From contig JBAXQK010000001.1 in assembly GCA_037131775.1 (NCBI GenBank), positions 76,708-140,707 of the forward strand: a stretch of DNA of 64,000 bases, in the 5' to 3' direction. Under the pieces are notes generated by a model. That model was not told the origin of the DNA and searched no databases. It was given only the letters and a program-made list of their open reading frames with translations. Positions 525-6,322 of this stretch are shown one piece after another. A program made the translations under genes and the position numbers. The stretch is from Candidatus Uhrbacteria bacterium. Lineage in GTDB: Bacteria > Patescibacteriota > Patescibacteriia > UBA9934 > GWF2-40-263. How positions within the stretch are numbered: the first letter of the stretch is position 1; the number at the start of each line of letters is the position of its first letter.

Positions 525-610
525 AGTGACGGAGTGATGAAGTGGTGAAGTGATGAAGTGGTGGAATTAGCTCCATCACTCAATCACTCCGTCACTCAAT
601 CACTTCTCAA
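525..610. repeat. Imperfect intercistronic hairpin (AGTGAYG / ACTCAMT repeats) between atpG and atpD; member of the GTGAGT/ACTCAC leader-hairpin family
   Basis: Left arm AGTGACGGAGTGATGAAGTGGTGAAGTGATGAAGTGGTGG, right arm CCATCACTCAATCACTCCGTCACTCAATCACTTCTC, then aatCCTATG (atpD start). Confidence 0.6.
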
Positions 611-614
611 TCCT

Positions 615-1985
615 ATGAAAGCAATAATCGCACAGATCATCGGACCGGTCGTCGACGTCCGCTTCGAGGGCAACGACATCCCGGCCATTTACACGGCACT
701 GACCGTGAAGCGACCGGACGGAAGCGTCCTCACGCTTGAGGTTTCCCAACACGTCGGAGGCGGGATGGTTCGTGCCATCGCCATGAGCTCGACCGACGGT
801 CTCGTTCGCGGAATGGCCGTCGAAAACACGGGCGCGCCGATCTCCGTGCCGGTCGGTCCGGAAACGCTCGGCCGCATGTTCAGCGTGGTCGGCGATCCGA
901 TCGACAACATGCCGCAGGTCAAGGCCAAGCGCCGCGACCCGATCCACCGCGCGGCCCCGGCCTTCGAGGAGCAGTCCACGAAGTTTGAGGTGTTCGAGAC
1001 CGGCATCAAGGTCATCGACCTCATCTGCCCGTTCTTGAAAGGCGGAAAGACCGGCCTGTTCGGCGGCGCCGGCGTGGGAAAGACGGTTCTCATCCAGGAG
1101 CTCATCCACAACATCGCCACGGAGCACGGCGGCTACTCGGTGTTCGCCGGCGTCGGCGAGCGCACGCGCGAGGGAAACGATCTGTACATGGAAATGAAGG
1201 AGTCGGGCGTGCTTGAGAAGACCGCGCTCGTGTTCGGCCAGATGAACGAGCCGCCGGGTGCCCGCGCGCGCGTCGCCCTCACCGGTCTCGCCCTTGCCGA
1301 GTACTTCCGCGACGACGAGGGCCGCGACGTGCTGCTCTTCATCGACAACATTTTCCGCTTTACCCAGGCCGGCTCCGAAGTATCCTCGCTGCTCGGACGC
1401 ATTCCGAGCGCCGTGGGTTACCAGCCGAACCTTGCCACGGAGATGGGCGCCCTCCAGGAGCGCATCACGTCCACGAAGAAGGGATCGATCACCTCGATCC
1501 AGGCCGTCTACGTCCCTGCCGACGACCTCACCGATCCGGCCCCGGCCACGACCTTCGGCCACCTCGACTCCACCGTGGTTCTCGCCCGCTCGCTCGCCGA
1601 GCTCGGCATCTACCCGGCCGTCGACCCGCTCGACTCGACGTCGACGATCCTCGACCCGCTCATCGTGGGCAAGGAGCACTACGACGTGGCGCGCGGCGTA
1701 CAGCTCGTTCTCCAGCGCTACAAGGACCTTCAGGACATCATCGCCATTCTCGGCATGGACGAGCTCTCCGACGATGACAAGCTGACGGTGTCCCGCGCCC
1801 GCAAGATGCAGAAGTTCCTCTCCCAGCCGTTCGCCGTCGCCGAGCAGTTCACCGGCAGCCCGGGCAAGTACGTGAAGCTTGCCGACACGGTCCGCGGCTT
1901 CAAGGAAATCCTCGAAGGCAAGCACGACGACAAGCCGGAGCAGGCGTTCTACATGAAGGGGGGAATTGACGAGGTGGTCGCGTAG
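615..1985 (+). CDS. atpD: ATP synthase F1 beta subunit
   Basis: Walker A GGAGVGKT, then DELSDDD and the rest of the beta-subunit consensus. Start taken at [15 protein letters not shown], internal to the 558 ORF. Confidence 0.95.
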
Positions 1986-1986
1986 A

Positions 1987-5896: not shown

Positions 5897-5973
5897 GCCG
5901 CAGGCACGAATGCCGAGAGGCCGTAGGGGAACGCGTCCACCTACGGCCTCTCATCCTACGGCCTTCAATCCTT

Positions 5974-6276
5974 ATGGACTCCCTCAAGGGCCTGCTCTCA
6001 AACATGCTCGCGCGGCATCAGATCACCAAGCAGGTGACCACCGCGCGGATTATCGAGGAGGCGAACGCCGCGATCGCGGCGTTGCTTCCGGCTGGGCGAG
6101 AGGGCGACGCGACGGCGGTATCGGTCCGCGAGGGGACCGTCGCCGTGAGTTGTCGCAATGCCGGGGCGGCGGCGTTTCTGCACGATCGCGAGGAACCGAT
6201 TCTCGTCTCGATCAAGAAGGCGCTGCCCGGCGCGCAGGTCGATCGGGTGCGGACCAGGGTGAGTGGTGGGTGGTAA
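5974..6276 (+). CDS. Small DUF721/DciA-like protein (hypothetical)
   Basis: About 100 aa, a conserved-looking pattern of hydrophobic and Gly positions with a cysteine; sits beside a replication/repair gene. Weak assignment. Confidence 0.35.
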   Translation: MDSLKGLLSNMLARHQITKQVTTARIIEEANAAIAALLPAGREGDATAVSVREGTVAVSCRNAGAAAFLHDREEPILVSIKKALPGAQVDRVRTRVSGGW

Positions 6277-6322
6277 GTGGTTAGTGGTATACTACTCACT
6301 ACAAACCACTCACTACTCACCT
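6263..6322. repeat. GTGAGT/ACTCAC leader hairpin preceding the membrane-protein start
   Basis: GGTGAGTGGTGGGTGGTAAGTGGTTAGTGGTA / TACTACTCACTACAAACCACTCACTACTCACC inverted repeat. Ends ...CACCTGTG with GTG as the putative start. Confidence 0.6.

Follow-up and report, generated by a model that had tools for sequence, protein, structure and literature searches.

Introduction

Tandem heptamer repeats of bacteria, such as the STRR and the TAACTGA repeats, have been known for decades without, to our knowledge, any function being assigned to them, and the STRR were reportedly first described by Mazel et al. in 1990. The present study deals with elements of a similar design in a stretch of 64,000 nucleotides (hereafter, the window) from Candidatus Uhrbacteria bacterium, a member of the Patescibacteriota (contig JBAXQK010000001.1, positions 76,708 to 140,707), in which long hairpins with tandemly repeated arms occupy the spacers between the ATP synthase genes atpG and atpD (site 1) and atpD and atpC (site 2), together with the spacer before a membrane-protein gene (site 3), and a lone array forms the leader of a thioredoxin-like gene (site 4). 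In these hairpins, the G-rich arm comes first and an arm with one G or none lies beside the start codon, an order that recurs among the periodic hairpins of other genomes of the clade.

In cyanobacteria, STRR hairpins of 7-bp repeats lie between hupS and hupL, and either the stabilisation of the transcript or translational coupling has been suggested for them (PMC2670836). In Beggiatoaceae, as well as in Bacteroidetes and some cyanobacteria, start codons are preceded by direct repeats of the heptamer TAACTGA (PMC4679880). The arrays of the window resemble such forward repeats in their placement, given that 0-9 nt separate the start codon from site 4 and from the 3' arms of sites 1-3.

Other dispersed extragenic palindromes, such as the REP/BIME (enterobacteria and pseudomonads), ERIC, Correia, and MITE-like elements, are co-transcribed with their neighbouring genes and, when near a stop codon, can alter the stability or processing of the mRNA, or upstream translation. 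The REP unit has approximately 35 nt and forms an imperfect palindrome of its own, starting from a GTAG head and following a conserved consensus, and it is associated with RAYT proteins and present in hundreds of copies per genome. In the atpHA mRNA of Escherichia coli, as reportedly shown by Rex et al. in 1994, the initiation region of the downstream cistron is hidden within an intercistronic structure, which ribosomes open as they translate the upstream cistron.

Sequence data and scope of the survey

The window has a GC content of 61%, and its positions 1-52683 are identical to the ENA metagenome contig ERZ27300037:k141_1369770. The closest named relatives of its AtpD protein belong to Candidatus Uhrbacteria and other metagenome-assembled genomes of the Patescibacteria. 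Together with the upstream flank contained in record L001, approximately 73 kb of this genome were covered. The full survey set comprised 166 records (2.24 Mb). Besides the atp operons of 80 GTDB genomes, it took in 80 loci from metagenomes, four short contigs from close relatives (L164-L167), the window, and L001.

The atp spacers were surveyed in the 80 GTDB genomes and L001, which provided 202 spacers of 45-260 nt. A hairpin was considered to be strong when it was unbranched, with at least 15 bp and z < -3, and periodic when its arms had a significant 7- or 8-nt periodicity. The z-scores of the folds at the window sites were derived from 200 shuffles each, and the terminator scan covered positions 1-7000 of the window.

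Hairpins that fill the spacers between stop and start codons

Sites 1-3 occupy ranks two to four among the inverted repeats of the window within 80 nt (I3 at 525-596, I2 at 1989-2053, and I4 at 6259-6313, respectively), with long, nearly perfect stems of 27-33 bp, in which the mismatches are regularly spaced, and each stem fills essentially the whole spacer from stop to start. The folding energies are -42.1 kcal/mol (z -6.7) at site 1 (522-617), -35.2 kcal/mol (z -5.9) at site 2 (1983-2066), and -43.7 kcal/mol (z -7.1) at site 3 (6255-6325), and none of the 200 shuffles was as stable in any of the three cases. A preliminary description of this DNA had proposed strong mRNA stem-loops inside the operons, which these folds bear out, although of the four long inverted repeats that it listed only sites 1-3 qualify, given that site 4 is a lone array that folds weakly (-4.2 kcal/mol, z -1.75), with no complementary arm and no hairpin.

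Only 2 nt (site 1) and 1 nt (site 2) separate the upstream stop codon from the stem, and the stem of site 3 already starts within the upstream gene, 20 nt short of its end, which places the stop codon (TAA 6274-6276) inside the 5' arm. At the other end, the distance between the stem and the start codon is 5 nt at site 1 (ATG 615), 3 nt at site 2 (ATG 2064), and 0 nt at site 3 (GTG 6323). The two arms differ in composition (Table 1): the 3' arms and their tails contain no ATG, GTG, or TTG triplets and 0-1 G, compared with 3-9 such triplets and 14-19 G in the 5' arms, the upper values (nine potential start triplets and 19 G) being those of site 1.

Site 2 is the same, base for base, in an independent assembly from another sequencing run (SRR7053541), and is therefore not an assembly artefact. 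None of the three stems is followed by a T tract, and the terminator scan had no match at these sites; taken together, the promoter and terminator scans identified no consensus site at sites 1-4. A promoter within the hairpin loops, for which the TATACT of the site 3 loop was a candidate, is likewise unsupported by the promoter scan.

The arrays with a period of 7 or 8 that Tandem Repeats Finder (TRF) detected in the 64 kb are those of the four sites, a weak row of 2.9 copies in coding sequence (49705-49726, score 30), and two 2-copy rows of period 8. The ACTCAC hexamer, which had been proposed as a search motif, is not enriched in the window as a whole (20 hits, with 22 expected), and what does hold is its clustering at sites 2-4: ACTCACTAC, with at most one mismatch, has 10 hits, all of them in sites 2, 3, and 4, where 4.45 would be expected in the window and none of 100 shuffles reached 10. 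Site 1 had also been assigned to the GTGAGT/ACTCAC units, which proved to be incorrect, as its units are the 8/16-nt AAGTGATG and CTCAATCA. It is largely shown that the sites belong, as copies, to families of short tandem repeats that are specific to the genome, the unit having 7 nt, or 8/16 nt in the case of site 1.

Start codons of the downstream genes

The orthologues of AtpD align from residues 1-5 at the predicted ATG. The relatives of AtpC include proteins of 136-140 aa, the nearest of which share the ATG-AAA-ATC start, and those with short spacers have the same first codons as the window, while the orthologue of the membrane-protein gene in L004 has the same GTG ACC TT... start. As the orthologues match the predicted starts, the repeats are not translated, and the elements stand as untranslated intercistronic leaders, as had been proposed, the possibility that the true starts lie upstream having been checked against these orthologues and found not to apply. 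The extended open reading frames (ORFs) that run through the elements (558..1985, 2010..2480, 6263..6706, and 52097..52435), already suspected to be spurious, are artefacts of sequence that is free of both G and stop codons.

Many of the AtpC database entries have 145-150 aa, compared with 136-140 aa for others, and these longer entries may reflect the extension of starts by gene callers through stop-free arrays.

Recent insertion and turnover

The atpD|atpC spacer has 78 nt in the window, with the GTGAGTA-type hairpin of site 2. The spacer of the nearest relatives (L164-L166, with 95% AtpC identity) has 106 nt and an unrelated GC-rich hairpin, and the same GC-rich element is found in L167 (93% AtpC identity), whose contig is cut at the 5' end, even though the flanking coding DNA of these relatives is nearly identical to that of the window. 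In other relatives, the spacer has only 11 nt (L171, 84% AtpC identity), 10 nt (L173, 79% AtpC identity), or 4 nt (L004, 90% AtpD identity). Similarly, the spacer before the membrane-protein gene has only 7 nt in L004, which shares the GTG start, and by comparison with this genome, the final codons of the upstream gene have given way to the 5' arm of site 3 in the window. No AtpD closer than 86% identity was found in the metagenome scan, and site 2 has a single further copy, which does not differ from it, the next relatives having either an unrelated element or none, which is all that is available for an analysis of covariation.

These spacer comparisons largely show that the hairpins are young insertions into spacers that had approximately 4-11 nt originally, where a G-rich array, together with a C-rich array that is its inverse complement, either was inserted or grew in place. 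Given that relatives have spacers of 4-11 nt at the same gene pairs, the elements are not conserved regulators of the ratios of the ATP synthase subunits, which was one of the roles envisaged for them.

The GC-rich structured element of approximately 106 nt in the atpD|atpC spacer of the relatives (L164:184-289, L165, and L167:1-44) contains GGGTCCTGYCACC-like motifs that recur in spacers of L005 and L010, and these elements may constitute a second dispersed structured family in the Uhrbacteria.

Periodicity, position, and polarity in the clade

Period 7 is the commonest class of tandem repeats in the 2.24 Mb, with 532 arrays, 335 of which lie in the intergenic sequence that makes up approximately 20% of the total, where arrays of period 6 number 46 and those of period 8 number 110. 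Strong hairpins were found in 107 of the 202 atp spacers, and 37 of these 107 have periodic arms, with units that vary by genome. When all co-directional gaps are considered, using our own gene calls, 60 periodic hairpins are present in 39 of the 166 records. The class is thus largely shown to be widespread in the Patescibacteria.

The periodic hairpins lie a median of 4 nt past the stop codon and 14.5 nt before the start codon, and of the spacer that they leave free, a fraction of 0.31 falls on the side of the stop (p = 7e-5). Their orientation is far from random, given that the G-rich arm precedes the C-rich arm in 19 hairpins and follows it in none when the difference in skew exceeds 0.3 (19:0, p = 4e-6). 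The same order was found in 12:0 of the periodic hairpins of the atp operons, where the starts are defined by homology, in 25:3 when counted per record, and in 29:6 of the inverted array pairs identified by TRF, without recourse to gene calls. The non-periodic hairpins, used as a control, have no such bias (14:23). The polarity also depends on the distance from the start codon, with 27:2 for hairpins whose 3' arm is no more than 20 nt away from it, compared with 7:4 beyond 30 nt. The elements had been described as tied to the translation start, and this holds for their polarity, with the G-free arm beside the start, and not for their position, which hugs the stop codon more closely than the start.

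Given this polarity, and stems that fold equally well on either strand, the periodic elements look like DNA-level palindromes with an orientation filter imposed by the transcript, rather than RNA structures maintained over a long period.

The spacers that flank atpE (atpB|atpE and atpE|atpF) are long in almost all the genomes among L004-L083 (at least 50 nt in 50/60 and 60/62), and the sense strand gives a much better fold than the antisense strand for many of the hairpins in these spacers, which suggests a conserved RNA-level structure around atpE that is distinct from the sporadic periodic palindromes.

Context of translation initiation

The start codons of the window are preceded by T at -1 in 71% of the cases and by C at -2 in 53% (a CCT-ATG context), with A at -11 in 50%, and G is depleted from approximately -13 to -1. 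Motifs resembling the Shine-Dalgarno (SD) sequence occur upstream of 14% of these starts and at 15% of random positions. Across all loci, the corresponding values are about 12-13% and 9.5%, which we take as chance level, and since the motifs are at chance level throughout, loci with and without periodic hairpins do not differ in their SD rate. No SD sequence is present at site 4 or in the 3' arms of sites 1-3.

The chance-level occurrence of these motifs fits a report on the Parcubacteria, in which about half of the 16S rRNAs lack the anti-SD motif (PMC9297842). [quoted passage not shown] There is no 16S gene within the window, and the only one among the fetched loci, that of a distant relative (L074), has a normal GGATCACCTCCTT tail.

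Some first genes appear, by eye, to be leaderless, such as era, where a TTGACG-17-TATTCT sequence ends 6 nt before ATG 50503. A different arrangement is found in the hypothetical genes that start at ATG 54742 and ATG 55950, which have near-identical upstream regions (54650-54741 and 55860-55949). Both contain TTGACA-N17-TGATAGC, followed by a Shine-Dalgarno site, CAGGAGAA, that is clear and, for an SD-poor genome, unusual. The neighbourhood of these genes (56779-60739) includes a gene for a type IV coupling protein of the TrwB/TraG-like kind (56779-59049), as well as 1.7 kb with no called gene, and the whole may be an integrated mobile element.

Partnerless arrays and other repeats of the genome

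The window is tightly packed with genes, including atpG-D-C, a UvrD-like helicase, mreBCD-PBP2, aminoacyl-tRNA synthetases, and a ribosomal-protein/rpoA cluster. Four repeat families were recognised in the 73 kb (GTGAGTA, AGTGATGA, CAAGAAT, and AAGGC-type), with 3-5 copies each. In the upstream flank, the atpE|atpF spacer of L001 carries a hairpin of like design, composed of CAAGAAT and TCTTGCC, and the hairpins of atpA|atpG and cvpA|tatD have AAGGC-type units, the two sister copies of this type in the record lying at L001:1316-1400 and L001:8915-8995. A third AAGGC-type hairpin, directly past the stop of the tRNA methyltransferase gene, is followed by a promoter-like TTGACG-17-TATTCT, recognised by eye, and then by ATG 50503 of era. 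The purine/G-rich arm comes first in all of these hairpins, and all the long atp spacers of this genome (5/5) carry a hairpin.

Array-like, G-poor leaders with no partner arm precede the thioredoxin-like gene (site 4, located between a divergent gene pair), clpB, and atpE. The leader of clpB lies downstream of a promoter-like TTGACT-17-TATACT (22849-22877). Ordinary terminators, with a short GC-rich stem and a T-rich tail, can be read from the sequence and its folds at approximately 2495-2535, 38570-38600, 56748-56775, and 61740-61785. No Rfam family reached its gathering score anywhere in the window, the scan of the window for tRNA and tmRNA found nothing, and there is no transposase or RAYT (Y1) domain among the genes of the 73 kb.

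Table 1. Repeat arrays, hairpins, and contrasting features of the window (positions are those of the window)
Feature	Position	Strand	Description
Site 1, 5' arm	527..565	+	G-rich, almost C-free 8/16-nt tandem array, AAGTGATG x4.6; 2 nt past atpG stop (522-524)
Site 1, 3' arm	572..609	+	C/A/T array, CTCAATCA x4.2, one G; then AUCCU, then ATG 615 (atpD)
Site 2, 5' arm	1987..2018	+	C-free heptamer array, GTAGTGA x3.7; 1 nt past atpD stop (1983-1985)
Site 2, 3' arm	2024..2060	+	CACAACT/ACTCACN heptamers (TRF CACAACT x3.4), one G; then CCT, ATG 2064 (atpC)
Site 3, 5' arm	6257..6287	+	GGTGAGT x4.4; encodes last ~5 codons and stop of 100-aa weakly DciA-like gene
Site 3, 3' arm	6292..6322	+	ACTACTC x4.3, G-free; abuts GTG 6323 of 127-aa membrane-protein gene
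Site 4	52361..52401	-	Lone G-poor ACTCACN heptamer array (TAGTGAG x3.6 on + strand); 5' leader of 87-aa thioredoxin-like gene, ATG 52360
clpB leader	22897..22947	+	G-poor; CAAACTA/CAAACAA units related to the family of sites 2-4
Third AAGGC-type hairpin	50399..50458	+	Directly past tRNA methyltransferase stop (50390-50392)
Non-periodic GC-rich hairpin	5915..5952	+	Fills spacer between helicase gene and 100-aa gene; 3' arm motif CCTACGGCCT duplicated before ATG 5974
Intrinsic terminator of the atp operon (contrast)	2495..2535	+	Short GC-rich stem, then T-rich tail; scan scored 2495-2525 palindrome on minus strand

The 100-aa gene has an orthologue in L004 whose leader contains a direct heptamer array, TTTTACA TTTGACA TTTTACT (L004:6530-6552), at the place where the window has the non-periodic GC-rich hairpin. 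The longest inverted repeat of the window (49620-49712, 43-nt arms, -75 kcal/mol, z -10) is part of the coding sequence for the tRNA (uracil-5) methyltransferase (49001-50392), which it continues in frame by encoding ...TGLKSLGIDGIPRDFSPAG..., and has the look of an inserted palindrome that the protein tolerates. Finally, a gene-free stretch of 586 nt (18378-18963, GC 0.47) lies between convergent genes and has no Rfam or tRNA match; it contains a lone G-rich, array-like segment, GGTTGAGTGATGGATTGAAGGGGA, directly past the stop of the PGI gene.

Discussion

The account that we favour, albeit tentatively and as one that may well be wrong, combines the origin of the elements with an effect of their fold, that is, STRR-like palindromic repeats are retained only in the polarity that leaves a leader free of G and of start codons, and the resulting hairpin provides stop-start translational coupling. 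According to this account, the clade would initiate translation without SD pairing, at starts in a G-poor CCU-AUG context, and an intercistronic insert would be tolerated only under two joint constraints. First, a G-free arm would have to lie beside the start, because such an arm cannot hold AUG, GUG, or UUG and would be unstructured once released. Second, the insert would have to fold back on itself, so that the stop of the one cistron stays within a few nucleotides of the start of the next. On terminating at the end of the upstream cistron, a ribosome would melt the base of the stem, or the whole stem at site 3, where the stop lies within the 5' arm, which would free the 3' arm and expose the downstream start. 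Ribosomes that finish the upstream cistron would account for most of the initiation on the downstream one, or would have to be present for it to occur at all, through both unmasking and proximity, and in the absence of upstream translation, a start that is flush against a stem of -35 to -44 kcal/mol would be poorly used. The geometry of sites 1-3 agrees with such a process, as the stem covers the initiation region of the downstream gene, with a gap of 0-5 nt to the start codon, and its 5' side can be reached by a ribosome that terminates upstream, the stop lying either 1-2 nt ahead of the stem or inside it.

A number of observations weigh against this account. We infer the coupling step from geometry only, and the 7-nt periodicity is left unexplained by it. 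The periodic hairpins fold equally well on both strands (25 vs 26), with no G.U bias, and there is therefore no sign of selection for RNA pairing beyond the complementarity of the DNA, whereas the non-periodic hairpins favour the sense strand (89 vs 53). Periodic hairpins are also present in 4 of 102 convergent gaps and 6 of 93 divergent gaps, or far from starts, and coupling cannot be the effect of the hairpin at 50399-50458, given that it is followed by a promoter-like site. In the wider set, the depletion of start triplets is modest (0.93 vs 1.63 per 33 nt, p = 0.008). Finally, the elements are not conserved in position, and relatives manage with short spacers, so that any function must be dispensable.

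The main rival explanation is that the elements are selfish or neutral repeat DNA, generated by slippage and intrastrand template switching, or by an unseen transposase, with no cellular role, the rules of orientation and position being a residue of purifying selection. This explanation, which is unlikely on balance and yet deserves serious consideration, shares its origin with the coupling account and differs from it only in denying an effect. It would accommodate the rapid turnover, with an unrelated hairpin in the same spacer of the nearest relatives, the several unrelated unit families in one genome, the lack of a G.U strand bias (25 vs 26), the occurrence of a palindrome with 43-nt arms even within a coding gene (49620-49712), and the recoding of the end of the upstream gene by the 5' arm of site 3. 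It is less easily reconciled with the sequestration of positions -1 to -40 of the essential genes atpD and atpC, from which some effect on expression would be expected, or with the presence of hairpins in all five long atp spacers of this genome and of a hairpin with a different sequence at the same spot in the nearest relative.

A role in mRNA stability or processing, with the hairpins either acting as barriers to 3' exonucleases or being cleaved by RNase III, which would divide the polycistronic transcript into units, giving differing subunit levels and short G-free leaders, is rather improbable. REP and Correia/ERIC elements do act in this manner, and the near-perfect stems of 27-33 bp, with their regular mismatches, resemble RNase III substrates. 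Long structured spacers flank atpE, the gene of the high-copy c subunit, in nearly all the genomes (at least 50 nt in 50/60 and 60/62), and the non-periodic hairpins fold better on the sense strand (89 vs 53). However, this role leaves unexplained both the strict G-first/C-last polarity and its dependence on the distance from the start, and the hairpins are absent at the same gene pairs in relatives.

A broader proposal, which we consider speculative and less probable still, is that polar heptamer hairpins serve as a form of operon punctuation in Patescibacteria that lack SD sequences, either holding the stop and the start together or being cut by a double-strand RNase, so that internal cistrons would be started by re-initiation or as short-leader mRNAs, with a leader free of both G and start codons. 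The 7-nt period would then stem from a dedicated machinery that generates or binds the repeats, possibly shared with the cyanobacterial STRRs.

The period itself is addressed by the idea that the arrays are binding sites for an RNA-binding protein with domains that span approximately 6-7 nt (of the cold-shock-domain or S1 type), which would act as a translational enhancer or regulator, and there is a precedent in the proposal made for the TAACTGA repeats of the Beggiatoaceae (PMC4679880). Arrays of the ACTCAC/ACTACAA family form hairpin-free leaders at site 4, clpB, and atpE, and related CTACAAA/CTACTAA units precede atpD in L039 and L007. Even so, a single specific binder is unlikely, given how widely the units differ between genomes and between the families of one genome, and the putative sites are base-paired within the hairpins, all of which makes this idea a poor candidate.

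Transcription terminators or attenuators inside the operon would account for stable hairpins directly past stop codons, but are highly improbable, as no T tract or scan match was found at the three sites, the genome has separate, ordinary terminators, and termination before atpD or atpC would be harmful. That the true starts lie upstream, with the repeats translated as N-terminal extensions, is almost certainly wrong in spite of the stop-free frames, the extended ORFs listed for them, and the many AtpC entries of 145-150 aa, as the alignments of the orthologues begin at the predicted starts, relatives with 4-11-nt spacers share the first codons, and the supposed extension is not conserved at all.

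Two further readings were rejected, namely that of DNA uptake sequences, since there are many unrelated units rather than one motif, and that of TIGR arrays, since there is neither a 36-nt unit structure nor a Tas gene. The avoidance of Rho loading, through the masking of rut sites, was also considered as a cause of the polarity.

The significance of these elements lies in the occurrence of an STRR-like architecture in an unrelated, uncultured, and SD-poor lineage, with a clean rule, by which the G-rich arm comes first, the G-free arm lies beside the start, and the element spans the distance from stop to start. If this rule reflects SD-free internal initiation, it would provide a handle on translation in the candidate phyla radiation, as well as on the persistence of repeats. 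If the elements are merely tolerated junk, they would at least be a record of how reduced genomes acquire palindromes through a rapid process of mutation. In either case, stop-free arrays lead gene callers to over-extend the N termini of proteins in these genomes.

Comparison with known repeat systems

The REP/BIME, ERIC, and Correia elements are similar to those of the window in being palindromes of co-transcribed operons that form hairpins in the mRNA and vary in presence between relatives, and the analogy with the REP/BIME and ERIC elements drawn in the preliminary description is fair with regard to a possible mode of working. It does not extend to membership, and the present elements are not members of the REP or ERIC family. 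The arms are tandem, non-palindromic heptamers with no family consensus, which belong to four unrelated families, and whole elements have 60-90 nt. In addition, GTAG is found only in the units of site 2, no RAYT or transposase was seen in approximately 73 kb, and the REP/BIME, ERIC, and Correia elements offer no counterpart to the start-linked rule of polarity.

The coupling of atpHA in E. coli also involves an intercistronic structure over a downstream atp initiation region. That structure consists of conserved, unique sequence and works together with an SD sequence, whereas the hairpins of the window are labile, derived from repeats, and apparently SD-less, and their coupling is one that we infer.

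The TAACTGA repeats share with the present arrays the forward heptamers a few nucleotides from the start, overlapping the place of the ribosome-binding site, the rarity of canonical SD sequences, and an occurrence, in some cases, in essential operons. They have one fixed unit and are rarely inverted, whereas the units here are varied, none of them being TAACTGA, and mostly form inverted pairs, and only site 4 resembles the direct form.

By this comparison of designs, the cyanobacterial STRR hairpin is the closest described kind, with which the elements share tandem units of 7 nt, an intergenic location, and inverted arrays that form a hairpin between co-transcribed genes. The differences lie in the host, which belongs to the Patescibacteria rather than the filamentous cyanobacteria, and in its SD-less background, in the units, which are unrelated (GTGAGTA, AGTGATGA, CAAGAAT, and AAGGC-type), genome-specific, and grouped in several families per genome, and in the strict, start-linked G-first/C-last polarity, of which we know of no report for the STRR. 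Relative to the known heptamer repeats, then, the host lineage, the variety of the units, the strict polarity, and the link to the start codon appear to be new.

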